Assembly: GCA_905235525.1 (NCBI GenBank)
Contig: CAJOLW010000025.1
Span: 3,452-67,451, forward strand
DNA length: 64,000 bases
Reading direction: 5' to 3'
DNA from: an uncultured Bacteroidaceae bacterium
GTDB taxonomy: Bacteria > Bacteroidota > Bacteroidia > Bacteroidales > Bacteroidaceae
Below, in pieces: positions 2,000 through 40,238 of this stretch (position 1 is the first letter of the stretch; every line of letters starts with the position of its first letter). The translations under genes and the position numbers were made by a program. The notes beneath the pieces are model-generated. The model saw only the letters and a list, made by a program, of their open reading frames with translations, was not told the origin of the DNA and made no database searches.

Positions 2000-2350
2000 T
2001 CATGTAGGCTGACCGATCAGCAGCCGTCGCTCCTTCAGGGTGTGAATGGTGCTCTCCAACTCTCCCCATGCTGCATCCAACTGCTCCAAGGTTTCTTTAC
2101 CTTCGTCGGTCAGCACATAATACTTTCGTGGAGGTCCCTGTGTGCTCTCCTGCCATTCATAACCCAGCAAACCATCATTCTTCAGTCGGGTGAGCAACGG
2201 ATACAACGTGCCCTCCACCACCAGCAGGTTCGCCTCCTTCAGACGTTTGATGATGTCCGAAGTGTAGTATGCCTTTTCGCTGAGCAGCAGCATGATGCAG
2301 TACTCCAGCATACCCTTTCGCATCTGCGATTTTGCATTATCCACATTCAT
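2000..2350 (-). CDS. PadR family transcriptional regulator
   Basis: 116 aa with LEYCIMLLLSEKAYYTSDIIKRLKE...GTLYPLLTRLKNDGLLGYEWQES...PRKYYVLTDEGKE, the PadR winged-helix signature. Confidence 0.88.
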   Translation of the reverse strand: MNVDNAKSQMRKGMLEYCIMLLLSEKAYYTSDIIKRLKEANLLVVEGTLYPLLTRLKNDGLLGYEWQESTQGPPRKYYVLTDEGKETLEQLDAAWGELESTIHTLKERRLLIGQPT

Positions 2351-2544: not shown

Positions 2545-2583
2545 GTGTCCATTTCTGGACATTCACTGTCCAGAAATGGACAC
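2545..2583 (+). promoter_or_regulatory. enhancer (UAS) candidate: perfect 17-bp inverted repeat made of two TGTCCA-N4-TGGACA sites
   Basis: The sequence is GTGTCCATTTCTGGACA ttcac TGTCCAGAAATGGACAC. It lies 43 nt upstream of a -24/-12 promoter, and a near copy sits at 9645-9683. Confidence 0.65.
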
Positions 2584-2625
2584 TTGCTGTTTTCAGCATC
2601 ATTGATTATCAGTTAATTGTGCATT

Positions 2626-2640
2626 TGGCACGTGTTTTGT
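2626..2640 (+). promoter_or_regulatory. sigma-54 type -24/-12 promoter (TGGCAC-GTGTT-TTGT) for TolC-HlyD
   Basis: TGGCACGTGTTTTGT lies 35 nt upstream of ATG 2675. The same architecture occurs at 9727-9741, and a sigma-54 activator is encoded in the locus. Confidence 0.6.
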
Positions 2641-2674: not shown

Positions 2675-4174
2675 ATGAAACAAATGAAAAGATTAGAAAG
2701 AATGAGATGGTTTTGGTTGGGTTTGATATGCCTTTTCTCCATGCTGGGACATGCAGAGAGTGATACCCTGCGCATGAGCCTTGGCGAGTGCATCCTTTTG
2801 GCACGGCGGCAAAGTGTGGATGCGGCAGTGGCATTGGGCGAATTGAAGTCGGCTTATTGGGAGTGGAGGAGCCATAAGGCGAACTTGCTGCCCGAGGTGT
2901 CGCTGTCGGCGAATGTACCCACATATAACAAGCGATACAGCACATACCAGAAAGAGGACGGCACACACTCCTACGTGCGGAACGACTACATGGAGTTGGA
3001 CGGTTCCATTTATGTGAGTCAAAAGATATGGCCTACAGGTGGCACATTGTCGGTGGAATCATCGCTGGATTGGATGCGGCAGATGAGTGGCGACACAAGC
3101 GGAGGCAGGAATCAGTTCATGAGCATGCCCATAGCACTCACGTTGAGCCAGCCACTCTTTGGCGTGAACACTGTGAAGTGGGACCGCCGCATCGAACCTA
3201 TCCGATACAAAGAGGCGAAGGCATCCTTCCTGACAGAGACGGAACAGGTGGCGATGCAAGCCATCAGCCTCTATTTCAATTTGCTGTTAGCAAACGAGAA
3301 CGTGAACATCGCCGAACAGAACCTACAGAATGCAGAAAAACTCTACGAAGTGGCACAGGCAAAGCGCGAGATGGGCAGCATCAGTCAAAACGATGTGCTA
3401 CAGATGCGACTGGGCATGCTGAATGCCCAATCAGCACTCACCTCTGCGGAGAGCCGCCGGAAGGCACAGATGTTTGAATTGAAGGCATTCCTCGATGTGG
3501 AAAGCGACATCGAGCCCATTGTACCCGAAGAGATTCCCGAGGTGACACTTCTCTACGAGGAGGTGCTGGAGAAAGCATTGACAAATAATGCCTTTGCGAA
3601 CAGAATGCGGAGGCGACAACTGGAAGCCGACTATTCGGTGGCATACGCGAAGGGAAACATGAGAAGCGTGACGCTCTATGCACAAGTGGGCTACACAGGC
3701 ACTGACCGCACCTTCGGCGATGCCTACCGAAACCTGTCGAGCAAGCAAGTGGTGCAGGTAGGTGTGTCGTTGCCGCTGCTCGACTGGGGCAAACGGCGCG
3801 GACAGGTGAAGGTGGCAGAGAGTAATCGTGAGATTGTGCGGAACCAAGTGCGGCAACAGTCACAGGAGTTCCGACAGAACCTCTTCGTGCTGACCGAGCA
3901 GTTCAACCACCAGCGGCAGCAACTTCGCATTGCCGAAGAGGCGGACACCATTGCCCAACGTCGCTACCACACCAACGTGGAGACCTTCAAGATTGGCAGC
4001 ATCTCCACCCTCGAACTGTCGGATGCACAAACTGCCAAGGACGAGGCACGGCAACGTCGCATTTCCGAACTGTTCAACTATTGGTACTACTACTACCAGT
4101 TGCGATCCATCACGCTGTGGGACTTTGAGAAAGGACAAAACATCAATGTGGATTTTGAAAAAATAGTAAAATGA
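2675..4174 (+). CDS. TolC family outer-membrane efflux protein
   Basis: 499 aa with a signal peptide (WFWLGLICLFSMLGHA) and two repeats of coiled-coil/beta-barrel TolC-like sequence. It is ATGA-coupled to the downstream adaptor gene. Confidence 0.85.
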   Translation: MKQMKRLERMRWFWLGLICLFSMLGHAESDTLRMSLGECILLARRQSVDAAVALGELKSAYWEWRSHKANLLPEVSLSANVPTYNKRYSTYQKEDGTHSYVRNDYMELDGSIYVSQKIWPTGGTLSVESSLDWMRQMSGDTSGGRNQFMSMPIALTLSQPLFGVNTVKWDRRIEPIRYKEAKASFLTETEQVAMQAISLYFNLLLANENVNIAEQNLQNAEKLYEVAQAKREMGSISQNDVLQMRLGMLNAQSALTSAESRRKAQMFELKAFLDVESDIEPIVPEEIPEVTLLYEEVLEKALTNNAFANRMRRRQLEADYSVAYAKGNMRSVTLYAQVGYTGTDRTFGDAYRNLSSKQVVQVGVSLPLLDWGKRRGQVKVAESNREIVRNQVRQQSQEFRQNLFVLTEQFNHQRQQLRIAEEADTIAQRRYHTNVETFKIGSISTLELSDAQTAKDEARQRRISELFNYWYYYYQLRSITLWDFEKGQNINVDFEKIVK

Positions 4175-5442
4175 AGACAGATAATCAAACCATGGACAGA
4201 GCCATTCCTGTCAGCGTACAGCGCAAAAGAAGAATGGTACGATATGGCAAGTATGCCGCCATCGTGGCTGTTGTGATGGGCGTGGCAGTATGGCTGGGCA
4301 CACTGATGATGAGTTCAGTAGATAAAAAGAGCCTCATCACCTCGCAGGTGGACAGGGGCATCATCGACGTGAGCATCATCGCCACAGGCAAGGTAGTGCC
4401 CGCCTTCGAAGAAGTCATCATCTCACCCATCAGCGCACAGATTCTGGAGGTCTATGCCCATAGCGGCGACACCGTAGATGTGGGCACTCCCCTCCTCCGC
4501 CTTGACCTTCAGTCGGCTCAGGCTGACTACTCCAAAGCCCTCGATGAGCAGGAAATTCGTCGGCAACAGATGGTGCAACTCACCACCAACACCGAAACCC
4601 AACTGAGTGACCGGCGCATGCAGTTGGAGGTGGAGGAGATGAAGATTGGGCAGTTGGAAGCACAACTGCGCAACGAGCAATATCTAGACAGTCTTGGCTC
4701 AGGCACGAAAGACCGTGTGCATCAGGCGGAAATCACCCTCCGCACCGCACAAATGCAACTGAAGCAACTGAGGCAGCAGTATGAAAACGAGGTGCGAGTG
4801 AGAAAAGCCGACCTGCGCATGAAGCAATTACAGGATGGCATTGCCGACAAGAGCCTTGACGAAACACGTCGCACCCTCGATGGTGCCAACATCCGTTCGC
4901 CCCGCAAAGCGACTCTCACCTACATCAGCAACGAAATCGGCAGCATCGTCGGGTCAGGCTCCAAAGTGGCAGTGGTGAGCGACCTCACCCATTTCAAAGT
5001 CGATTGCAGCATTGCCGACACCTATTCCGACCGCGTGATGGCAGGAGGACGTGTACTCGTCAAAATCGGGAGGGAACGCCTTTTCGGCACCATCAACACC
5101 GTCACGCCTCTCAGTCAGGACGGAGTCATCACCTTCACCGTCTTGATGGATAACCCCAGCCACCCCAAACTCCGTTCAGGCTTGAAGGCAGAAGTGTTTG
5201 TCATCACCAACATCAAGGAAGACGTGCTGCGCATCCGCAACGGTTCTTACTATACAGGTGCAGGCGATTATACATTATATATATATAAAGATGAACATAC
5301 CCTTGTGCCCCGCACCATCCACCTCGGCGACTGCAACTATGATTACGTGGAAGTCATCAGCGGATTGGAAGAGGGTGACAGCGTGGTGGTGAGCGACATG
5401 CAGAGGTATAAGGGAAAAGAGAAGATTCGAGTGAATGAGTGA
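4171..5442 (+). CDS. HlyD/MacA-type periplasmic adaptor (membrane fusion protein)
   Basis: 423 aa with an N-terminal TM anchor, a lipoyl-like segment (GKVVPAFEEVIISPISAQILEVYAHSGDTVDVGTPLLRLD), a long coiled coil and a beta-barrel C-terminus. Confidence 0.85.
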   Translation: MKTDNQTMDRAIPVSVQRKRRMVRYGKYAAIVAVVMGVAVWLGTLMMSSVDKKSLITSQVDRGIIDVSIIATGKVVPAFEEVIISPISAQILEVYAHSGDTVDVGTPLLRLDLQSAQADYSKALDEQEIRRQQMVQLTTNTETQLSDRRMQLEVEEMKIGQLEAQLRNEQYLDSLGSGTKDRVHQAEITLRTAQMQLKQLRQQYENEVRVRKADLRMKQLQDGIADKSLDETRRTLDGANIRSPRKATLTYISNEIGSIVGSGSKVAVVSDLTHFKVDCSIADTYSDRVMAGGRVLVKIGRERLFGTINTVTPLSQDGVITFTVLMDNPSHPKLRSGLKAEVFVITNIKEDVLRIRNGSYYTGAGDYTLYIYKDEHTLVPRTIHLGDCNYDYVEVISGLEEGDSVVVSDMQRYKGKEKIRVNE

Positions 5443-5507: not shown

Positions 5508-5515
5508 TACCTTTG
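5508..5515 (+). promoter_or_regulatory. Bacteroidota -7 box (TACCTTTG) for the response regulator / kinase pair
   Basis: TACCTTTG lies 17 nt upstream of ATG 5532, in the 89-nt gap after the adaptor gene. Confidence 0.5.
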
Positions 5516-5531
5516 CAAAAAATATAAACAC

Positions 5532-7013
5532 ATGATACTGATTGTTGACGATGACAGAGCCATTCGGGTGGCATTGACATTGATGCTGGAACGCAATGAT
5601 TACACGGTGATAAGTGCTGACGGACCTGATGCCGCCATGGAAGTGGTGCGCCACCAAGCCGAGTTGGAACTGGTGCTGATGGACATGAACTACACCCTCT
5701 CCACCGATGGCGAAGAAGGACTCACACTGCTCCGACAGGTGAAGGTGTTCCAACCCAACCTGCCCGTGATTCTCATGACCGCATGGGGCAGCATCGACTT
5801 GGCAGTGCAGGGAATGAGAAACGGAGCCTTCGATTTCATCACCAAACCATGGGATAATGGGGTGCTGCTGGAGCGAATCGAAACCGCCATACTGCTCAAC
5901 CGCCCTCACACAACGGAAGAACCTGCCGATAGACCCTTACACAACCTCTCAACCGACGTCGACGACATCGGTGAGGCGACATCGACGACATCGATTGACC
6001 GACATCGTCGACGTCGGTTTGGAGGTGCTGAAGACACCCTCATCATCGGGCAGTCGCAAAGTCTGCTGAGTGCCCTCGCCACTGTTGAACGAGTGGCACC
6101 TACCAATGCCCCAGTGCTCATCACGGGCGAGTCGGGCACAGGCAAGGAACTCATTGCACAAGCCATCCACGAACAGAGCCGACGGGCAGGAAAACCCTTT
6201 GTGAAAGTGAACCTCGGCGGTATATCAACAGCCCTGTTCGAGAGTGAGATGTTCGGACACAAGAAGGGTTCGTTCACCGATGCCAAGAGTGACCGCACGG
6301 GACGCTTTGAACTGGCAGAGGGCGGCACAATCTTTCTGGATGAAATCGGCGAGTTGGAACTGGCGAGCCAAGTGAAACTCCTGCGGGTGCTGCAAGACCA
6401 GACCTATGAGGTGCTGGGCGACAGCACCAGCCGCCACGCCAACGTGCGTGTGGTGTGTGCCACTAATGCCGACCTCCGCCAGATGGTCAAGGAGAAAACC
6501 TTCCGCGAAGACCTCTTCTATCGCATCAACCTCATCAACATCCATCTCTCACCCCTGCGCGAACGCACAGACGACATCCCTTTGCTCGTTCACCACTTCA
6601 TCCGCCAAACCTGCATGAGCAATAGTTTACCCATTGCCACCGCCTCTGCCGAAGCCATCCGATACCTGCAAACCCTCCCCTTCTATGGCAACATCCGCGA
6701 ATTGAAGAACTTAGTGGAGCGTACACTGCTCATGAGCGCAGACCCCTCCCTCACCTCCCCCAAAGGGGAGGGGTGGATACTTTCCGCAATGAATTTCCAA
6801 GAAGCTTACCAACAGAATCCCGTTGATGGAGGTGACCACTCTCCCCATTTAGGGGGAGCGGGGAGGGGGTCTGCTCTTACCCTTGAAGAAATCGAACGGG
6901 CTTCCATCGCAGCCTCCCTCGAAAAGCACCAAGGCAATCTCTCTCTGGTGGCAAAGGAACTCGGCATCAGCCGTGGGGCACTCTACCGAAAGATAGAAAA
7001 ACACGGGCTGTGA
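5532..7013 (+). CDS. sigma-54-dependent (NtrC-family) response regulator
   Basis: Start placed at MILIVDDD; the ORF-track start 5439 reads through heptad-repeat spacer. It has a receiver domain and an AAA+ sigma-54 interaction domain (GESGTGKELIAQAIH, GSFTDA variant of GAFTGA, IFLDEIGEL, VRVVCATN). It ends in a Fis-type HTH (LVAKELGISRGALYRKIEKHGL). Confidence 0.9.
   Translation: MILIVDDDRAIRVALTLMLERNDYTVISADGPDAAMEVVRHQAELELVLMDMNYTLSTDGEEGLTLLRQVKVFQPNLPVILMTAWGSIDLAVQGMRNGAFDFITKPWDNGVLLERIETAILLNRPHTTEEPADRPLHNLSTDVDDIGEATSTTSIDRHRRRRFGGAEDTLIIGQSQSLLSALATVERVAPTNAPVLITGESGTGKELIAQAIHEQSRRAGKPFVKVNLGGISTALFESEMFGHKKGSFTDAKSDRTGRFELAEGGTIFLDEIGELELASQVKLLRVLQDQTYEVLGDSTSRHANVRVVCATNADLRQMVKEKTFREDLFYRINLINIHLSPLRERTDDIPLLVHHFIRQTCMSNSLPIATASAEAIRYLQTLPFYGNIRELKNLVERTLLMSADPSLTSPKGEGWILSAMNFQEAYQQNPVDGGDHSPHLGGAGRGSALTLEEIERASIAASLEKHQGNLSLVAKELGISRGALYRKIEKHGL
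5951..6019. repeat. 69-bp palindromic element inside the REC/AAA+ linker coding region
   Basis: AACCGACGTCGACGACATCG (5951-5970) matches the reverse complement of CGACATCGTCGACGTCGGTT (6000-6019) at 18/20. It encodes TDVDDIGEATSTTSIDRHRRRRF. Confidence 0.6.
6739..6873. repeat. 135-bp G/C-hairpin element with terminal inverted repeats, in frame inside the regulator gene
   Basis: Left end is CAGACCCCTCCCTCACCTCCCCCAAAGGGGAGG and right end is CTCCCCATTTAGGGGGAGCGGGGAGGGGGTCTG. The right arm is nearly identical to 30378-30408. Confidence 0.75.
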
Positions 7014-7043: not shown

Positions 7044-8279
7044 ATGAAGATACAGCAATACTTCCTACTGCTTGCAATCATCATTGGCGGTGTGTTTGCC
7101 GCACTGATGTGGCTGACGTTCAGCGTCCGTCCTGTCATCTTCTATGTGACAGAAGGGGTGCTGGTGGTGGTGATTGCCTATCTCATTTTCTTCTACCGAA
7201 AAGTCATCCGTCCCATCGACACGCTGACCAGCGGCATGGAACTGCTGCGCGACCAAGACATGAGCACCACACTCGCCACTTCGGGACAAAGGGAGACTGA
7301 CGAAATCGTGAAAACCTTCAATGCCCTCATCACCCGACTGCGCAATGAACACCTGCGACTCGACGAACAGAACACCTTCCTCAACCTGCTCATCGATGCC
7401 TCGCCGATGGGTGTCATCCTCTGCGACCTCTCAGGCAATGTCCGTTCGATGAACCCTGCTGCCAAGCAGATGCTCACTCCTGCACTTTCGGAGGCACTCA
7501 AGTCACTCCCTTTAGGAAAGGACACGACCCTCCGACTCAGTAATTCACAAATCTACCACCTCTCTCATCTTTCCTTCCGCGACCGAGGCTATCAGCACCC
7601 CTTCTTCCTCATCGAGTCACTGACCTCCGAGGTGATGAAAGCCGAGAAAGCCGCCTATGAAAAGGTCATCCGCATGATTGCCCATGAGGTGAACAACAAT
7701 GTGGCAGGAATTATAAGCACCTTAGATATCATCCAGACGGAACTGCCTGACAACACCGCACAAGAAGCCCTTGAAGCCAGTCGCGAACGCACCCAAAAGA
7801 TGGCTGAGTTCGTCACTCGCTTTGCCAATGTCGTGAAGGTGCCAGAACCTCAACTCACTCTTTGCGACCTGAGCGAGGAAGTGGAAGCCTGTCACTCCTT
7901 CCTCGAAGGGCTTTGCCACACCCACCACATCCGTCTGACCCTCAATCTCACCGATGATGCCACCCCTGTGCACCTTGACACCACATTATTCCAGCAGGTG
8001 CTTGTAAACATTGTAAAGAACGCCATTGAAAGCATTAGCAATGAGGGTGAAATACACATAGAGACCCAACCCAAGACCCTCACCATCACCGACAACGGCA
8101 AGGGCATCTCTCCCGAAGTTGCCCAACACATCTTCACACCTTTCTATTCCACCAAACCCCAAGGCCAAGGGCTGGGATTACTTCTGATTCGTGACATCCT
8201 CACCAAACACGGCTGCACGTTCACCCTCCTCACCAACCCTGACGATGGACTGACCCGCTTCACCATCCTCTTCCCATAA
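7044..8279 (+). CDS. sensor histidine kinase (NtrB-like partner of the sigma-54 regulator)
   Basis: 411 aa with two N-terminal TM helices, H-box IAHEVNNNVAGI, N-box VLVNIVKNAIES and G-boxes DNGKGI / GQGLGLLLIRDI. Confidence 0.88.
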   Translation: MKIQQYFLLLAIIIGGVFAALMWLTFSVRPVIFYVTEGVLVVVIAYLIFFYRKVIRPIDTLTSGMELLRDQDMSTTLATSGQRETDEIVKTFNALITRLRNEHLRLDEQNTFLNLLIDASPMGVILCDLSGNVRSMNPAAKQMLTPALSEALKSLPLGKDTTLRLSNSQIYHLSHLSFRDRGYQHPFFLIESLTSEVMKAEKAAYEKVIRMIAHEVNNNVAGIISTLDIIQTELPDNTAQEALEASRERTQKMAEFVTRFANVVKVPEPQLTLCDLSEEVEACHSFLEGLCHTHHIRLTLNLTDDATPVHLDTTLFQQVLVNIVKNAIESISNEGEIHIETQPKTLTITDNGKGISPEVAQHIFTPFYSTKPQGQGLGLLLIRDILTKHGCTFTLLTNPDDGLTRFTILFP

Positions 8280-8470: not shown

Positions 8471-9598
8471 ATGAACAAGCCATTTATCTATGGAACTGCT
8501 GTCGGTGGAGAGAATTTCACAGACAGAGTGCAGGAAACACGAAGACTGAGAATGGACTTCGAAAATGGACTGAACGCCATCCTGATTTCCCCTCGAAGAA
8601 TGGGAAAAACCTCTCTGGTGCAGAAAGTGAGGAATGAAATGACGGATGAGAAGATTAAGGTGATCTACATGGACATCTACGACTGCAGAAGTGAGTACGA
8701 TTTTCTGGAGCGCTTTGCTTCCATTCTCATCAAGCAGACGGCAGGGAAAGTGGAGATGTTAGCATCCACTGTGATGGAGTTCCTCACAAGAGTTGTTCCC
8801 AAAGTCTCTTTCAGCCCAGAACCCAACTCGGAGTTTTCGCTGTCCCTTGGCATCAACCCTGAAACACATACTCCTGATGAAATACTGAACTTACCTGAAC
8901 GCATTGCGGAAAAACGGGGTGTCCACATCATCGTGTGCATTGACGAGTTTCAACAAGTGGGCGAATTTCCGGATAGTCTCAATGTGCAGAAGCGTATGCG
9001 TGGTGCGTGGCAACACCATAAGAATGCCTCCTACTGTATGTTCGGTAGCAAAAAGCATTTGATGATGAAAATCTTTCAGAGCAAACGGATGCCTTTCTAC
9101 AAGTTTGGCGACACCATATTCCTCGACAAAATACCCGATGCTGACTGGGTTGCTTTTATCCAGTCACGCTTTGCCAACAAGGAGAAAAGCATATCTGAAG
9201 ACTTTGCCAAACGTATCTGCCGCACCGTGGATGGGCACTCTTCATACGTCCAGGAACTGGCATGGAATGTATTTGTCGAAACAGAACGTGAAGTTACTGA
9301 GGACTCGTTCCAAAGGGGGCTTGATGAATTGCTCCATCAAAACTCAGCCCTTTTCCAAAGCCGAATCGAAACACTCACCTCTTTTCAGATGAATTTTCTT
9401 CGTGCCTTGTGTGATGGAATCCACAGTGATTTTGGCAGCAAACGCATCATAGACGCTTACCATTTAGGTACCAAATCAAACATCACCCGTCTCAAGAGCA
9501 GCCTTGAAGACAAGGAACTCATTGAGACCAGCAAGGGGGCAACCACCATTGCAGACCCAGTGTTTTTATTGTGGTTCAAAAGGGAATACATGTCATAA
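8471..9598 (+). CDS. ATP-binding protein (Orc1/Cdc6-like 'archaeal ATPase' family AAA+)
   Basis: 375 aa with Walker A SPRRMGKTSLV and Walker B IIVCIDEFQQ. The C-terminal part resembles a winged-helix module. The family assignment is from memory of this architecture. Confidence 0.7.
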   Translation: MNKPFIYGTAVGGENFTDRVQETRRLRMDFENGLNAILISPRRMGKTSLVQKVRNEMTDEKIKVIYMDIYDCRSEYDFLERFASILIKQTAGKVEMLASTVMEFLTRVVPKVSFSPEPNSEFSLSLGINPETHTPDEILNLPERIAEKRGVHIIVCIDEFQQVGEFPDSLNVQKRMRGAWQHHKNASYCMFGSKKHLMMKIFQSKRMPFYKFGDTIFLDKIPDADWVAFIQSRFANKEKSISEDFAKRICRTVDGHSSYVQELAWNVFVETEREVTEDSFQRGLDELLHQNSALFQSRIETLTSFQMNFLRALCDGIHSDFGSKRIIDAYHLGTKSNITRLKSSLEDKELIETSKGATTIADPVFLLWFKREYMS

Positions 9599-9644: not shown

Positions 9645-9683
9645 GTGTCCATTTCCGAACACCAAGTGTCCAGAAATGGACAC
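9645..9683 (+). promoter_or_regulatory. second copy of the enhancer palindrome (one degenerate half)
   Basis: The sequence is GTGTCCATTTCCGAACA ccaag TGTCCAGAAATGGACAC. It has the same spacing to a -24/-12 promoter as at 2545. Confidence 0.6.
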
Positions 9684-9726
9684 TTCATTTTAAAGTTACT
9701 ACTGATTATCAATACATTAATCTTTT

Positions 9727-9741
9727 GGCACGTTCTTTGTT
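9727..9741 (+). promoter_or_regulatory. sigma-54 type -24/-12 promoter (TGGCAC-GTTCT-TTGT) for the ABC exporter genes
   Basis: TGGCACGTTCTTTGT lies 29 nt upstream of ATG 9770. A shared TGATTATCA motif lies 15-16 nt upstream of the TGGCAC at both promoters (2603 and 9703). Confidence 0.6.
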
Positions 9742-9769: not shown

Positions 9770-11047
9770 ATGAACAAACTACTTATTTACCTACGCCAGG
9801 CTCTCCACATGATGAGGGAGGAGCGGCTCTTCTCCGCCATTTATATTGCAGGAACAGCGTTGGCGATTGCTTTCACGATGGTCATTGCTGTGGTGTATTA
9901 CGCCAAGTTGGCGGACATCGAGCCGGAAGTGAACAGGAGCCGGACGGTGTATGTATTACCGATGTCAGAGACTCCCAAAAACGGAGCAGAACTTAAAGAA
10001 GAAAAGAATTACTTCCTTTCAGATGAAGTGAAAGAATGGTTCTATCCACTGAAAAGCGTTGAGGTAGTCAGTGCTAACCTTAGATTAGAAGAATGGCACA
10101 GCGATAAAATAAACATTTGGAATAAGGAAAATAAAGATTTTAAACCTATTCCCGTGGCGACAAAAATGGTGGATGAGAATTTCTTCAGAGTCTATCACTT
10201 TCAGTTCGTCTATGGACACCCTTTCACAAAAGAGGAAAAGAATTTGAACATCTGCATCATCAGCCGAGACATTTCCGAGAAATTGTTTGGCAAGGGTGTT
10301 GATCCTGTGGGAAAGATGCTCAATCTCGGCGGTGAATTCCGCATTGTGGGCGTGACGGAACCGACCTCGTCTATTGCAGAACAGAGTTTCGCCCAACTTT
10401 TTGTGTACATAGGCGAAGATGAGGCAAGAGATATGATCACCATTGTTTTGAAAGAAGGGTGCAGCGTTGCCGACTTAGAGAAGGAGTTGGAGGAGGTTGC
10501 CCACAAGCGTAGCGTCAGCAGCAAGGACATGAACTATTCGTTCGAAAACAGAGTATTGCCCCATGCTCAACTCCAAATGTCAGGGGGGCGGACGCTCTCC
10601 TCATGGAAAGACATCCTCATTTCTCTCTTTCCACAAGTGTTTGTGTTACTGCTCGTGCCTGCTCTCAATCTGAGCGGATTGGTGGCAGCACGGATGAAAC
10701 GCCGACTGCCTGAGATGGGGGTTCGTAAAGCATTTGGAGCCAAACGGAAAGAACTGATGCATCAGGTCATCATGGAGAATCTGGTGCTCACCCTTTGTGG
10801 CGGCATTGTCGGTTTGTTCATCACCTGGCTGCTGCTCTATGTATTTCGTTCGTGGGTGTTCTTTGCCATCGGAAGCCAGTTCACCATGATGTCCGAACCG
10901 ACCATTGAGGGCGAAATGCTCTTCTCGCCCTTTATCTTCCTTATCGCCTTTGCGGTATGCCTTATCGTGAACATGATGGCAGCCATCATTCCAGCATGGC
11001 TCAGCCTTCGTCATCCAATTGTAGAATCCATGAATCAGAAGAAATAA
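9770..11047 (+). CDS. MacB/FtsX-type ABC transporter permease
   Basis: Start placed at MNKLLIYLRQAL, because the ORF-track start 9599 reads through the enhancer/promoter. It has an N-terminal TM helix, a large extracytoplasmic domain and a C-terminal FtsX domain (RKAFGAKRKELMHQVIMENLVLTL). Confidence 0.85.
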   Translation: MNKLLIYLRQALHMMREERLFSAIYIAGTALAIAFTMVIAVVYYAKLADIEPEVNRSRTVYVLPMSETPKNGAELKEEKNYFLSDEVKEWFYPLKSVEVVSANLRLEEWHSDKINIWNKENKDFKPIPVATKMVDENFFRVYHFQFVYGHPFTKEEKNLNICIISRDISEKLFGKGVDPVGKMLNLGGEFRIVGVTEPTSSIAEQSFAQLFVYIGEDEARDMITIVLKEGCSVADLEKELEEVAHKRSVSSKDMNYSFENRVLPHAQLQMSGGRTLSSWKDILISLFPQVFVLLLVPALNLSGLVAARMKRRLPEMGVRKAFGAKRKELMHQVIMENLVLTLCGGIVGLFITWLLLYVFRSWVFFAIGSQFTMMSEPTIEGEMLFSPFIFLIAFAVCLIVNMMAAIIPAWLSLRHPIVESMNQKK

Positions 11048-11152
11048 TTATATGTACAATTTGACCATGTACAATGTACCATCTATTTTCCATTCGGGAT
11101 GTACGTAAAAAACAGTTCAATCGCTAAATTGTCAAATAAATTGTAAATCACT
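11048..11152 (+). repeat. 105-nt intercistronic element (head ATGTACAATTTGACCAT, tail AAATTGTAAATCACTATG)
   Basis: Homologous along its length to 12464-12568 and shares head and tail with 62473-62593. Contains the mini-ORF 11052-11108. Confidence 0.7.
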
Positions 11153-12463
11153 ATGATGAAACAGATACTCAACAACCTTTGGAGCCAACGAACACAAAAT
11201 GTATGGCTCTTCATCGAACTGGTGGTGGTGTGCTTTGTAGCATGGACACAACTTGACCCGATTGCCGTGAGATTGTACTATAAGAGTTTGCCGAAAGGCT
11301 TTGACAGCGAACGGTTGGTGGTGGCAAACACCAGAACCACCGATATACAATGGATAGACGATGACTCATACAACACGAATAGAGCATTCGTTCAAAAGAT
11401 GATCAAACAAAAATTACAGACATTAGATGAGGTGGAACAAGTGAGCCTCCTTGGACAAATCCAAGGTTTACTGGCTCCTCGGAACATTTTCAATGGTTCA
11501 TCATGGGTCGATCAGGAAGGTGAACAATACATTTATGGAAATGACACCATCCTTGTCTATGAACTATGCTACATTAAGAACGAGCACTTTTTTGAAACTT
11601 ATGGCATTCAAGTAGCGGATGGAAGCCCTACAGCAAAAGAACTATCGAAGTTGGATGATGATGGTGTGGTCATCAGCCGTTCCATTGCCGAGCACTTCTT
11701 TGGGTCTGCCAAGGATGCCATCGGCAAAGAAATTTTTGAAGCTGACATCATGATGAGTCGCCGCATCCGAGGAGTGGTAGAGGATATTCATGTGTCAGAT
11801 TCCAACTTCGACACCTGGCAAATCTATCAATCCACCTCGGACATTAAAATGATTTTTATTAGTAACCACCTCACCATACGCCTGAAACCTGATGTGAACG
11901 TACAGCAATTTATTGAGAAGTACAACTGTCTTCAACAATTTGCTACAGACGGGCTTGCCATCGCCTTCTTCACACCTTACGAGGACATAGCCACGCCCAA
12001 GAATCAGTTTGCTACGCCTATACTCTCCTACGACTTCAATCTCTCTGTCGCCACCGCCATCTTCTTCCTCATCAACCTCTGCTTGGGTGTGATTGGCACG
12101 TTCTGGATGCAGACCAAGCGGCGAACGGAAGAGTCGGGCATCATGCGGGCATTCGGATCTACGAAGCGACGCATCATGGGAATGTTCTTGGCGGAGGGCT
12201 TCGTGCTCACCACCTTCAGCATGTTCATCACCTGCATCCTCTACCTCAACTATGTGAAGACAGGACTTGGTACCTTGTGCATCCCTCCTCATGAGCCATA
12301 TGCACAACCCGACCCCACATGGGTGGCAGACAAGCCCCTGCACTTCCTCATCATCTCCGGCATCGTCTATCTCATCATACTCATCACTGTCTCCATCGGC
12401 ATCACCATCCCTGCATGGAACATCGTCAGGACAAAGCCTGTGGAAGCACTGAGAGAAGAATAA
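11153..12463 (+). CDS. MacB/FtsX-type ABC transporter permease (paralogue)
   Basis: 436 aa with the same topology as the upstream permease and an FtsX domain MRAFGSTKRRIMGMFLAEGFVLTT. Confidence 0.85.
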   Translation: MMKQILNNLWSQRTQNVWLFIELVVVCFVAWTQLDPIAVRLYYKSLPKGFDSERLVVANTRTTDIQWIDDDSYNTNRAFVQKMIKQKLQTLDEVEQVSLLGQIQGLLAPRNIFNGSSWVDQEGEQYIYGNDTILVYELCYIKNEHFFETYGIQVADGSPTAKELSKLDDDGVVISRSIAEHFFGSAKDAIGKEIFEADIMMSRRIRGVVEDIHVSDSNFDTWQIYQSTSDIKMIFISNHLTIRLKPDVNVQQFIEKYNCLQQFATDGLAIAFFTPYEDIATPKNQFATPILSYDFNLSVATAIFFLINLCLGVIGTFWMQTKRRTEESGIMRAFGSTKRRIMGMFLAEGFVLTTFSMFITCILYLNYVKTGLGTLCIPPHEPYAQPDPTWVADKPLHFLIISGIVYLIILITVSIGITIPAWNIVRTKPVEALREE

Positions 12464-12568
12464 ATATAATGGACAATTTGTACCATGGACAATGGACAAT
12501 TTATGAATTGGATGATTTTCGTAAATGACTCAATCAAAAAAATTAAATAGTAAATTGTAAATATCATT
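12464..12568 (+). repeat. 105-nt intercistronic element (second copy)
   Basis: ATGGACAATTTGTACCATGGACAATGGACAAT ... TAAATAGTAAATTGTAAATATCATTATG. Contains the mini-ORF 12469-12528. Confidence 0.7.
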
Positions 12569-13246
12569 ATGGAAACAATCATTAAATTGACAAACATCAA
12601 CAAGGTGTATCGCACTGAGGAAATTGAGACTCAGGCATTGGAGAACGTGAACATCGAAGTGGAAAAGGGAGAGTTCCTCAGCGTGATGGGACCATCGGGC
12701 TGTGGCAAATCGACTTTGCTCAACATCATGGGACTGCTCGATGAACCCACCAGCGGCGAGATTGAACTGTGTGGCACAAAGATTGATTCCACACTGAGCG
12801 ACAACCGATTGGCAGAGTTCCGCAACAAGACGCTGGGCTTCGTGTTCCAGTCGTTCCACCTCATCAGTTCGCTCAACGTGCTCGACAACGTGCAGTTGCC
12901 ACTCCTCTATCGGGGTGTCGGCTACAGCGAACGCATGAAACGCGCCAAAGAAGTCATTGAGCGAGTGGGACTGTCCCACCGCATGAAACACACACCCGTG
13001 CAACTCTCAGGTGGTCAGTGCCAGCGTGTTGCCATTGCCCGTGCCATCATCGGCAACCCCGAAATCATCCTCGCCGACGAACCGACAGGTAACCTCGACT
13101 CGAAGATGGGTGCCGACATCCTCGGACTGCTCAAGCAACTGAACGAGGAGGATGGACGCACCATCGTGATGGTGACACACAACGAACAGCAGGCACAGCA
13201 AACGAGCAGAATCATCAAGTTCTTGGACGGAAGACAAATCATGTGA
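12569..13246 (+). CDS. ABC transporter ATP-binding protein (MacB/LolD-like)
   Basis: 225 aa with Walker A GPSGCGKSTLL, signature LSGGQCQRVAIARA and Walker B IILADEPTGNLD. Confidence 0.92.
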   Translation: METIIKLTNINKVYRTEEIETQALENVNIEVEKGEFLSVMGPSGCGKSTLLNIMGLLDEPTSGEIELCGTKIDSTLSDNRLAEFRNKTLGFVFQSFHLISSLNVLDNVQLPLLYRGVGYSERMKRAKEVIERVGLSHRMKHTPVQLSGGQCQRVAIARAIIGNPEIILADEPTGNLDSKMGADILGLLKQLNEEDGRTIVMVTHNEQQAQQTSRIIKFLDGRQIM

Positions 13247-29701: not shown

Positions 29702-29911
29702 AAAAAAATGATTATTAATTTGATAAAAACTTATTTTGTACAAAGATACAACTTTCAATACTTTACTTCCAAATTTTTCCCTTTTATTTAAACACTTAAT
29801 AATGATAGTAAAGAAAAAGATAAGATGAAGCTATTTCTTCGAGATTGACCTTTTGGATGTTTTGTCAGTCAATATGACATTGTGTCACGATGTCATGTTT
29901 ATGTTAGGATG

Positions 29912-29926
29912 TGGCACATGGTTTGT
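29912..29926 (+). promoter_or_regulatory. candidate -24/-12 (sigma-54-like) promoter upstream of groES
   Basis: TGGCAC-ATGGT-TTGT has the same form as the two promoters at 2626 and 9727 and lies 65 nt upstream of ATG 29991. I see no TAnnTTTG box in this leader. Confidence 0.35.
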
Positions 29927-38177: not shown

Positions 38178-40238
38178 TTATTTCTTTTTCTTCTTCTTGA
38201 AGTTCTCGTAGAAGGGTTGTGACTCTACTTGTCCCTCGAAGAACTTAGCCCATTCGGCAGCACCTTTGGGTCCACGAGCCTCGGTGTAGCCTTGTTCTTC
38301 ACGAGAAGGTTTGGCTGCTGCGCCGCGAATGACACCACTGCCTTTCTTGTTCCTCTTCTCATTTCTCTTTTCGCCGTGGAAACGATTGTCTTCCCTTTCA
38401 TGGCGGTTATCACGGCGATTGGTGCGTTCACCTCTCACCGAGCGAAAACCGCCCCTTTCCTTGCCTCCACGTTTCTTCTCCCCACTCCGCTGTCCTTCGG
38501 GTTGATCTGTCACTTCCACATTCACCTTTCTGCCGTCGAAGTCAGTACCATTGAGCACATTCAGCACGGTTTTGGTCTGTCCCTCAGGAACCTCAAAGAA
38601 GGAGAAGTTCTGCATCAGGTCGATGCGTCCGAGGTCGATGTGCTGTCCCTGTGCTACACGGTTGATGAAACCCATGAAGACTTTAGGGTTGATGCCGTCC
38701 TTCTTGCCGAGATTGATGAAGAGACGAGTGTAACCTGCTTCAGCGGTACGACTACGTTCTCCACCCCGACCCCGACGTTCTCCACGTCCACGCTTCTCTC
38801 CGAATCCTTCAGCCTTGTCGCCACGACGGTCGCCCTTCTCTGATGGCTGGATGATTTCGGGGGCATTCTTGTAATAGTTGAGGAAGGTGTTGAATTCCAT
38901 TGACACCATGCGTTTGATGAGGTCTTCCTTCTCCATCATGTCAAACTTGCGATACACTTCAGGAAGGAACGGAGCAATCTCCTCTTCATCCACCTCGACC
39001 TTCTCAATGTCGTCAATCACCTTATAGAGTTGCTTGGCACAGATTTCCTGACCTGTTGGCAGGATGCCAGGAAACTTCTTCTGAATCTGCTGTTCGATGG
39101 CACGCACCTTGCCCTTCTCCTTCACATGGATGATGGAGATGGAAGTGCCAGAGCGTCCTGCACGACCTGTACGGCCCGAACGGTGGGTGTAACTCTCGAT
39201 GTCATCAGGCAATCCATAGTTGATGACATGGGTGAGTTCATCCACATCCAAGCCACGGGCAGCCACGTCAGTCGCCACCAGCAACTGCACCCGATGCTGA
39301 CGGAACTTCTGCATCGTCAGGTCACGTTGTGCCTGTGAGAGTTCCCCGTGCAAGGATTCAGCATTGTAGCCGTCCTTAATCAGTTTGTCAGCAATCTCCT
39401 GTGTCTCCATACGGGTGCGGCAGAAGATGATGGCGTATATCTCTGGGTAATAGTCAGCCACGCGCTTCAGGGCATTGTACTTGTCACGTGCACTGACCAT
39501 ATAGTAGATGTGGTTTACATGTTCAGCACCCTCGTTGCGGCTTCCCACTACAATCTCCTTGGCATCGTGCAGGTAGTTCTTGGAGATGCGTTCAATCTCC
39601 TTGCTCATGGTGGCAGAGAAGAGCAGGGTGTTGCGTTCGGCCGGCACTCCTGCGAGGATGGTGTCAATGCTCTCCGAAAAGCCCATGTTGAGCATTTCGT
39701 CAGCCTCATCCAGCACCACATTCTCCACAGTGCCAAGTTTAGCCACCCCACGTTCCATCAAATCGACCAAACGTCCTGGTGTGGCAACGATGACCTGCAC
39801 CCCTTTCTTCAATGCACGAATCTGTGGTTCGATGCTGGCACCGCCATAAACAGCCAGCACGTGCAGTCCATCAATATATTTGGAGTAATCTTTCAGATCA
39901 TCTGTGATTTGCAGACACAACTCACGCGTAGGTGCCATGATGACCGCCTGCACTTCGTTGCGGCTGGTGTCAATCTTCTGCAACACGGGCAGACCGTAGG
40001 CAGCAGTCTTTCCTGTGCCTGTCTGAGCCAGTGCCACCACGTCATTATTGTGTCCCAACAGATAGGGAATCACCTTCTCCTGCACAGGCATGGGCGCTTC
40101 ATACCCCATCTCCCGGATGGCTCGGAGAATCTCTCCCGACACACCCAGTTCCTCAAACGTCGATTCCACTTTAGGCATTCCGTTTTCCTGCATTTCTTGA
40201 CTCTCCTGAGTCTCCATATATTCCTTAGTTTCTTCCAT
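38178..40238 (-). CDS. DEAD-box ATP-dependent RNA helicase with DbpA-like RNA-binding domain and RG-rich basic tail
   Basis: Q-motif FEELGVSGEILRAIREMGYEAPMPVQ, then AQTGTGKTAAYGLP, LDEADEML, SAT and HRSGRTGRAG. The C-terminal tail is RGGERSR... and ends KKKKK. The start is 40238 or 40217; the track start 40361 overlaps pfkB. Confidence 0.9.
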   Translation of the reverse strand: MEETKEYMETQESQEMQENGMPKVESTFEELGVSGEILRAIREMGYEAPMPVQEKVIPYLLGHNNDVVALAQTGTGKTAAYGLPVLQKIDTSRNEVQAVIMAPTRELCLQITDDLKDYSKYIDGLHVLAVYGGASIEPQIRALKKGVQVIVATPGRLVDLMERGVAKLGTVENVVLDEADEMLNMGFSESIDTILAGVPAERNTLLFSATMSKEIERISKNYLHDAKEIVVGSRNEGAEHVNHIYYMVSARDKYNALKRVADYYPEIYAIIFCRTRMETQEIADKLIKDGYNAESLHGELSQAQRDLTMQKFRQHRVQLLVATDVAARGLDVDELTHVINYGLPDDIESYTHRSGRTGRAGRSGTSISIIHVKEKGKVRAIEQQIQKKFPGILPTGQEICAKQLYKVIDDIEKVEVDEEEIAPFLPEVYRKFDMMEKEDLIKRMVSMEFNTFLNYYKNAPEIIQPSEKGDRRGDKAEGFGEKRGRGERRGRGGERSRTAEAGYTRLFINLGKKDGINPKVFMGFINRVAQGQHIDLGRIDLMQNFSFFEVPEGQTKTVLNVLNGTDFDGRKVNVEVTDQPEGQRSGEKKRGGKERGGFRSVRGERTNRRDNRHEREDNRFHGEKRNEKRNKKGSGVIRGAAAKPSREEQGYTEARGPKGAAEWAKFFEGQVESQPFYENFKKKKKK

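Follow-up and report, generated by a model that had tools for sequence, protein, structure and literature searches.

NtrC sites at glnAp2 of enteric bacteria have the form TGCACC-N5-GGTGCA, are located around -140 and -108 and need no IHF. The target of AtoC at atoDAEB in E. coli is described as two 20-bp sites that form an inverted repeat and precede a sigma-54 promoter, and BceR of the Firmicutes is an OmpR-type regulator that works at sigma-A promoters. Here we describe a locus that can be compared with each of these systems. It lies in a stretch of 64,000 nucleotides (the window) from an uncultured Bacteroidaceae bacterium, contig CAJOLW010000025.1, and is centered on positions 2545-2640 in front of a tolC-like and an hlyD-like gene. 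This region very probably is the control region of a sigma-54-dependent tolC-like/hlyD-like operon that reads on into the genes of a response regulator and its kinase. The original prediction had proposed a circuit of enhancer, -24/-12 promoter and activator, and this proposal is now backed by conserved dyads, a fixed offset between dyads and promoter, the presence of rpoN, a syntenic activator gene and the co-occurrence of sites and regulator. Our literature search on this Bacteroides/Prevotella system returned computational predictions only and no experimental study, and neither the enhancer motif nor its geometry nor the cognate regulator was described in what it turned up. One of these predictions, from 2025, places sigma-54 promoters before COG0577/FtsX ABC (ATP-binding cassette) 'antimicrobial peptide' permease genes of Bacteroidia (PMC12316311, in the passages available).

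The upstream half of the region is a perfect 17-bp inverted repeat (Table 1), as had been claimed and as a check of its coordinates bore out. The 17-5-17 repeat is built from two TGTCCA-N4-TGGACA dyads and their mutually complementary N4 spacers. The dyads had been read as two adjacent dimer-type sites, one in each arm, and this reading fits the orthologous loci, in which both are kept separately. Read from the sequence, their centers are 21 bp apart, equal to two helical turns. TGTCCA-N{3,5}-TGGACA occurs three times in the 64-kb window, against 0.03 matches expected. The genome search suggested earlier for TGTCCA-N4-TGGACA gave three exact matches in 2.77 Mb, every one of them at this locus. 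An identical perfect repeat was found in a genus relative (G062). The dyads have what is expected of an enhancer (upstream activating sequence, UAS): they lie 70-150 bp upstream, are paired on one helical face and are syntenic with an activator gene.

The predicted promoter, TGGCACGTGTTTTGT, begins 43 nt past the last base of the repeat, exactly as proposed. Its distance to the ATG at 2675 had to be corrected from 35 to 34 nt, and a second in-frame ATG of the OEP/TolC open reading frame (ORF) is located at 2684. Judging from the position of the -24/-12 elements, transcription would start at about 2651-2652. The -24 element at 2626-2631 is of the TGGCAC type and has the GG doublet, and TGGCAY is found in 46 of 49 orthologous modules (dyad pair plus promoter, see below). 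A sigma-70-type promoter scan of the region, based on the E. coli consensus and not on that of the host, gave no match. Likewise, no Bacteroidetes TAnnTTTG -7 box was seen by eye between 2584 and 2674.

We compared 80 loci of Prevotellaceae, Bacteroides, Phocaeicola, Mediterranea, Parabacteroides and Tannerella that encode proteins related to the regulator (54-71% identity). Their conserved core is tolC-regulator-kinase, with hlyD and permease/ABC genes nearby, and the regulator is the sole DNA-binding protein that is syntenic with the module. Altogether, 49 modules from 44 sources across several Bacteroidales families were catalogued. They are located upstream of tolC-like genes adjoining the orthologous regulator and kinase genes, or upstream of permease/ABC transporter genes. 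In 47 modules, the proximal dyad matches TGTYCR-N4-YGRACA at all 12 positions; in the remaining two it does so at 11 of 12. The distal dyad is more degenerate and lies 19-23 bp upstream of the proximal one; TGGCAY-N4-TTTGN then follows at a discrete distance.

This distance defines, together with the spacing of the dyads, a small number of geometry classes (center-to-center distance, gap): (23, 31) with 17 modules, (19, 44-45) with 19 modules and (21-23, 43-45) in a Prevotellaceae group. Among loci L031-L089, the Bacteroides-type modules have the 31-nt gap, which holds a C-rich tract and no IHF-like site, and the Prevotellaceae- and Parabacteroides-type modules have a gap of 43-45 nt with an IHF-like site. 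The two gaps differ by about one helical turn, which suggests that the same regulator is served by two different architectures. No module was seen in many Prevotella-labelled loci (L013-L025, L027, L028). Several of these cases are explained by a contig cut or by pump genes that precede tolC, the operon start then lying beyond the fetched DNA. A few others, e.g. L014 and L018, have no pump genes near the regulator.

Within the genus, the tandem-site pattern was detected in 11 of 31 genomes, one to four times each, and a reversed-pattern control gave no match. The scan contained 18 complete modules (own genome included), all 18 with (A/T)GGCAY at 42-44 nt. TTTGT is usual at the -12 element of these modules, N4-TTTGT occurring in almost every case. 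An ortholog of the regulator (at least 73% identity) is present in 9 of 10 site-positive genomes and in 0 of 20 site-negative genomes (hypergeometric 7e-7, with phylogeny ignored).

The genome has the machinery that such a promoter calls for. It carries rpoN (a single Sigma54_DBD match of 131 bits in an intact 524-aa frame) and only two genuine sigma-54 activators. One is the locus regulator, which had been described as a sigma-54 activator with a Fis-type helix-turn-helix (HTH) and does show the Pfam architecture REC-AAA+(Sigma54_activat)-HTH_8. The second (L010:5190-6410) has 406 aa, a GSFTGA loop and no receiver domain, and corresponds to a conserved Bacteroidetes activator. Intergenic TGGCAY-N4-TTTGN sites were found upstream of groES (29912), grpE, a dnaJ-domain gene, htpG and dnaK. 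These heat-shock promoters have an upstream motif of their own, TGACA-N3-TGTCA or TGTCA repeats (e.g. 29875-29887), and the second activator presumably runs this sigma-54 heat-shock regulon. This picture agrees with the sigma-54 heat-shock regulon mapped in Flavobacterium psychrophilum (PMC9723704) and with the sigma-54 predictions in the passages available of PMC12316311. Since activators, enhancer motifs and regulons each number two, the TGTCC-N6-GGACA dyads can be assigned by exclusion to the locus regulator.

In the locus regulator, the loop that contacts sigma-54 (L1) reads GSFTDA (6267-6284). The orthologs of the 80 loci have GAFTDA in 62 cases and GSFTDA in 17, with F and T kept, and by this comparison the G-to-D change characterizes the regulator family. 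GAFTDA and GSFTGA are each found singly among D. vulgaris variants judged compatible with activation (PMC4641369), and the loop of the locus regulator combines both changes. The recognition helix is ISRGALYRKIEKHGL (6966-7010). Across the related loci, the helix SRGALYRK pairs with TGTCCA half-sites and SRAALYRR with TGTYCG half-sites, a pairing consistent with direct recognition, albeit with few independent events. When compared with NCBIfam equivalogs (NtrC, AtoC, ZraR, GlrR and others), the regulator scored below the cut-off in all cases, the best being NtrC with 358 bits vs 558.6; on these scores, no named activator qualifies as its ortholog. As called, its reading frame starts from GTG 5439, which results in an implausible N-terminus. 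The true start probably is ATG 5532 (MILIVDDD...). This leaves a 90-nt gap behind hlyD, with a TACCTTTG box at 5508 that looks like a Bacteroidetes-type -7 box and could serve as basal promoter of the regulator-kinase pair. The pair is probably expressed basally and, in addition, by read-through from the sigma-54 promoter.

Two further copies of the module were found in the genome. In the second (9646-9740), the 43-nt offset recurs and an ATG follows at 9770. The genes that this module is predicted to drive (9770-13246) encode the two FtsX/MacB-type permeases and the ABC ATPase. With a complete module ahead of the permease genes, the ORF that had been called from GTG 9599 is too long, and its real start is probably ATG 9770. 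The third copy, on contig C17 and not part of the original prediction, is located upstream of a gene for a 1021-aa OMP_b-brl_3 outer-membrane beta-barrel protein. A genus relative (L122) whose ortholog of this protein is 93% identical has the dyads and a regular TGGCACAATTTTTGT at the same position; in more distant orthologs, the third module is not conserved.

An element absent from the original description of 2545-2640 is an IHF-like bend site of the form WATCAR-N4-TTR between enhancer and promoter. Of the 32 long-gap modules, 13 have WATCAR at exactly -19 and 15 have it at any position, compared with 1.7 on average and at most 6 in shuffled sequences. It was found in none of the 17 short-gap modules. 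The complete WATCAR-N4-TTR occurs in nine modules, including both window promoters (2607-2619 and 9707-9719). We had considered the string TGATTATCA, which is common to both window promoters, as a trace of recent duplication, but rejected this idea when the wider alignment showed it to be a positionally conserved WATCAR core. The IHF-like bend likely is a way to bring an enhancer at only -77 to the promoter. The genome has seven matches to the HU/IHF family (PF00216), including a tandem pair on contig C14. To our knowledge, IHF is uncharacterized in the phylum Bacteroidota, and the WATCAR site suggests a predicted IHF-like architectural factor there.

The -12 element had been reported as TTGT at all sites of the window. 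This is true for the three intergenic sites (2626, 9726 and 29912), and the only exact TTGC match of the window, at 39098, falls within an ORF of 727 aa. All plausible sigma-54 promoters of the genome have TTTGT, except for TTTGA at htpG, and TTGC never occurs among them. A TGGCAC-N5-TTGC match on contig C10 was rejected as a promoter: it lies in a spacer of a CRISPR (clustered regularly interspaced short palindromic repeats) array. The array extends over ~157300-157700 with the repeat GTCTTAATCCTTATTCTGATGGAATATACTCTTTGAG, and the match in one of its spacers is due to chance. In the orthologous efflux modules, the -12 base is C in 28, T in 16 and A in 6 cases, a tally that still counts one overlapping false AGGCAT match in L077, later dropped to leave the 49 modules. 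The groES promoters of 30 Bacteroidales families (L091-L120) have TTGGCAY and G(-13) in 30 of 30 cases, while the -12 base is A in 17, C in 8 and T in 5. Going by these alignments, the T at -12 is a lineage trait, Bacteroidales tolerating A, C or T, and not a defect or peculiarity of the promoter at 2626-2640. Sigma-54 scans built on a TTGC matrix would therefore miss many Bacteroidales sites, among them most of the groES ones.

Several observations weigh against a sigma-54 enhancer-promoter unit at 2545-2640. The canonical GC doublet at -13/-12, ten bases after the GG, is not found, G(-13) being kept and -12 being T. TGGCAC-N5-TTGT has 26 copies in the genome, compared with 22-28 for every other last base, i.e. 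the string alone is not enriched. As the motif TGGCAC-N5-TTGN is unenriched for any last base, it cannot define promoters by itself; the promoter string owes its significance to the fixed 43-nt offset from the tandem dyads and to conservation. In the third module, the promoter TGGCATGTTTTTTTTGT has its TTGT two bases late. The regulator carries GSFTDA instead of GAFTGA, and none of the seven PF00216 proteins can be assigned to IHF rather than HU. Both the covariation of HTH helix and half-site and the presence/absence correlation of sites and regulator are confounded by phylogeny. Finally, the repeat scored as terminator-like, with TTGCTGTTTT as tail.

We weighed three other explanations against these data. 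Promoter and enhancer might both be real, with the regulator at the dyads mainly repressing or insulating, or with the second activator working from solution. This appears improbable: the promoters of the second activator bear a distinct upstream motif, and the dyads track the locus regulator and not the ubiquitous second activator, even though the latter has no receiver domain, PspF-like proteins can serve several promoters, and the proximal dyad is unusually near (~-77).

We give a similarly small chance to the idea that the dyads are operators of another factor, for example the divergent PadR repressor, and that transcription starts from a sigma-A-type promoter while TGGCAC-N5-TTGT is fortuitous. 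The PadR gene is indeed situated 195 bp upstream on the opposite strand, and the -24/-12 string is both unenriched genome-wide and without the -12 C. However, PadR was found in 0 of the 80 related loci, in which dyads and promoter recur, and the 49 modules keep TGGCAY at a set distance from the dyads. The lack of a TAnnTTTG box in 2584-2674 and of a sigma-70-type match speaks against the sigma-A-type promoter. PadR proteins have a reported site of ATGT-N8-ACAT, and the TGT-N10-ACA dyad is unlike it.

That the 17-5-17 repeat works through its hairpin, be it as an intrinsic terminator or as a mobile sequence of the REP (repetitive extragenic palindromic) kind, and not as a protein-binding enhancer is the least probable of the three, since its strong fold as single-stranded DNA (2545-2583, -20.5 kcal/mol, z = -9.3) and the REP-like hairpin cluster directly upstream (2473-2535) are outweighed by orthologous dyad pairs that are mostly complementary only in the half-site consensus (e.g. 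CGTCCGCTAACGAACA / TGTCCGAAAATGAACA), each dyad but no long hairpin being kept, by the fixed offset that binds the element to the -24/-12 motif and by its link to the regulator gene, and by a copy number of 1-4 per genome, unlike that of a dispersed repeat family. A terminator in particular was rejected: stem and T-rich tail are there, but no + strand gene ends upstream (the PadR neighbor is divergent) and the hairpin is unconserved in orthologs.

The cluster at 2473-2535, which directly abuts the enhancer, consists of GTACCC-GAG-GGGTAC mini-palindromes. A similar cluster exists on contig C17 just upstream of 36416, before a -24/-12-like site of a gene for a 994-aa PPDK_N-domain protein. Both appear to be copies of a dispersed REP-like repeat that inserts into promoter regions.

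The genes downstream of the two window promoters (Table 1) include all components of a MacAB-TolC-like tripartite exporter: OEP, HlyD_3, two MacB_PCD plus FtsX genes and ABC_tran. The best NCBIfam matches of the ATPase and the adaptor are the darobactin exporter components DarD and DarC, respectively, both below the cut-off. The kinase is predicted to be of the intramembrane-sensing type because its two transmembrane (TM) helices are joined by only ~7 residues. The ATPase_2 gene between the kinase gene and the second promoter has no counterpart at that place in the closest related locus (L011) and so has the look of an insertion. Loci L023 and L025 have distant homologs of it beside the regulator gene.

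Table 1. Coordinates of the predicted regulatory elements and genes of the locus and of related sites (window positions unless a contig is named).
Feature	Position	Strand	Remarks
Perfect 17-bp inverted repeat (17-5-17)	2545-2583		arms GTGTCCATTTCTGGACA 2545-2561 and TGTCCAGAAATGGACAC 2567-2583; ttcac 2562-2566
Distal enhancer dyad TGTCCA-TTTC-TGGACA	2546-2561		center ~-98 from predicted start
Proximal enhancer dyad TGTCCA-GAAA-TGGACA	2567-2582		center ~-77 from predicted start
IHF-like bend site TATCAGTTAATTG (WATCAR-N4-TTR)	2607-2619	+	19 nt upstream of TGGCAC, ~-40
Predicted sigma-54 -24/-12 promoter TGGCAC-GTGTT-TTGT (TGGCACGTGTTTTGT)	2626-2640	+	GG 2627-2628, G(-13) 2639, T(-12) 2640
Outer-membrane efflux protein, OEP/TolC family	2675-4174	+	Pfam OEP 1.5e-42; NCBIfam TolC family below cut-off; first gene of operon
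HlyD/MacA-type periplasmic adaptor	4171-5442	+	Pfam HlyD_3, HlyD_D23; TIGR01730 RND_mfp above cut-off
NtrC-type response regulator/sigma-54 activator	5532-7013	+	Response_reg 1.6e-22, Sigma54_activat 2.2e-68, HTH_8 3e-12
Sensor histidine kinase	7044-8279	+	two TM helices, loop ~7 residues, then HAMP, PAS, HisKA, HATPase
ATPase_2 (AAA-type) gene	8471-9598	+	between kinase and second promoter
Second module	9646-9740	+	dyads 9646-9661 (TGTCCATTTCCGAACA, two mismatches) and 9667-9682; TATCAATACATTA 9707-9719; TGGCACGTTCTTTGT 9726-9740
MacB_PCD/FtsX permease	~9770-11047	+	Pfam
MacB_PCD/FtsX permease	11153-12463	+	Pfam
ABC ATPase (ABC_tran)	12569-13246	+	Pfam
PadR-family gene	2000-2350	-	divergent, 195 bp upstream on opposite strand
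groES sigma-54-type promoter TGGCACATGGTTTGT	29912-29926		preceded by TGACATTGTGTCA (region 29875-29926)
Third tandem dyad pair	contig C17:28847-28944 (L009:6848-6945)	-	one mismatch per dyad, 43-nt offset to TGGCAT

Taken together, these features suggest the following mechanism. The kinase would phosphorylate the response regulator, whose dimers would bind both TGTCCA-N4-TGGACA dyads via the Fis-type HTH and there seed the AAA+ ring. A bend at WATCAR-N4-TTR, probably introduced by a protein of the HU/IHF family, would carry the ring to the sigma-54 holoenzyme, which would wait as a closed complex on TGGCAC-N5-TTGT. ATP hydrolysis, acting through the GSFTDA loop, could then open the promoter. 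The same regulator may drive the second module and the third one in front of the outer-membrane beta-barrel gene on C17, and the three modules together would bring about the coordinated induction of the MacAB-TolC-like tripartite exporter. Positive feedback, on top of the basal internal promoter, would come from transcripts that continue into the regulator genes. We infer binding, bending and the start site, as well as the inducing signal and the substrate of the system, from sequence.

The mechanism as such is textbook, and the locus is of value for annotation and for mapping the regulon, not for any new principle. What it offers is a testable cis code (two TGTYCR-N4-YGRACA dyads, spacing classes and a -24/-12 variant) for a two-component system that stands beside TolC/MacB-type exporters in many gut and rumen Bacteroidales. 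With this code, the regulon can be predicted in any Bacteroidales genome. Three points are modestly new in our view: the predicted binding motif, the occurrence of an IHF-like site in Bacteroidota, and the freedom that the -12 base has throughout the order. A more far-reaching reading, which we put forward only tentatively, is that the sigma-54 of Bacteroidales makes do with a relaxed -12 element: T(-14)/G(-13) and a T upstream of them would be all that counts, and the C could be dispensed with. The efflux regulon would combine this element with GxFTDA activators and, at long-gap promoters, with an IHF-like site, and the regulon as a whole might be the counterpart, Gram-negative and wired through sigma-54, of the Bce 'transporter as co-sensor' modules; the latter idea derives from the kinase having no sensing domain outside the membrane. 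If the relaxed -12 reading were true, scans with TTGC matrices would undercount the sigma-54 regulons of the phylum, and the closed-complex lock at the -12 fork junction might be different there.

Among previous predictions, the one in PMC12316311 deals with the same gene class and the same clade as the permeases of the window. Its scan matrix is TGGCAC-N5-7-TTGCT, and in the passages available from it we saw no mention of an enhancer motif or its geometry, of a cognate regulator or of an IHF-like site.

NtrC at glnAp2 resembles the present system in several respects: a REC-AAA+-Fis-type-HTH activator, two same-face dyads that nucleate an oligomer, and a -24/-12 promoter downstream of them. 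In the window, however, the dyads are TGTCCA-N4-TGGACA at ~-98/-77, an IHF-like site is present, and the target is an efflux pump rather than nitrogen assimilation. The AtoSC system of E. coli is close by profile scores, AtoC being the next-best NCBIfam match of the regulator and AtoS the best match of the kinase. The scores, though, are far under the equivalog cut-offs (AtoC 354 vs 714, AtoS 154 vs 646), the kinase of the window has no periplasmic domain, and the predicted regulon is that of an ABC-type exporter.

A parallel to the arrangement of UAS and bend site is found with NifA and IHF at nifH. The dyads of the window fit the TGT-N10-ACA consensus of the NifA UAS, and an IHF-type WATCAR-N4-TTR lies between UAS and -24 element. 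NifA, however, is a GAF-domain activator and not a response regulator, and its UAS is usually single and further upstream. Moreover, the HU/IHF family is represented in the present genome only by paralogs, none of them named IHF.

On the sensory side, the comparison is with BceRS-BceAB of the Firmicutes, in which the gene of an intramembrane-sensing kinase, whose extracellular loop is minimal, adjoins the genes of the MacB/FtsX-type ABC transporter under its control, as appears to be the case here. It is a matter of speculation, by analogy, whether the kinase of the window senses through the transporter in a Bce-like manner. Where the Bce modules rely on an OmpR-type regulator, the locus described here would use an NtrC-type activator together with sigma-54, in a diderm cell whose exporter is completed by TolC and a periplasmic adaptor.

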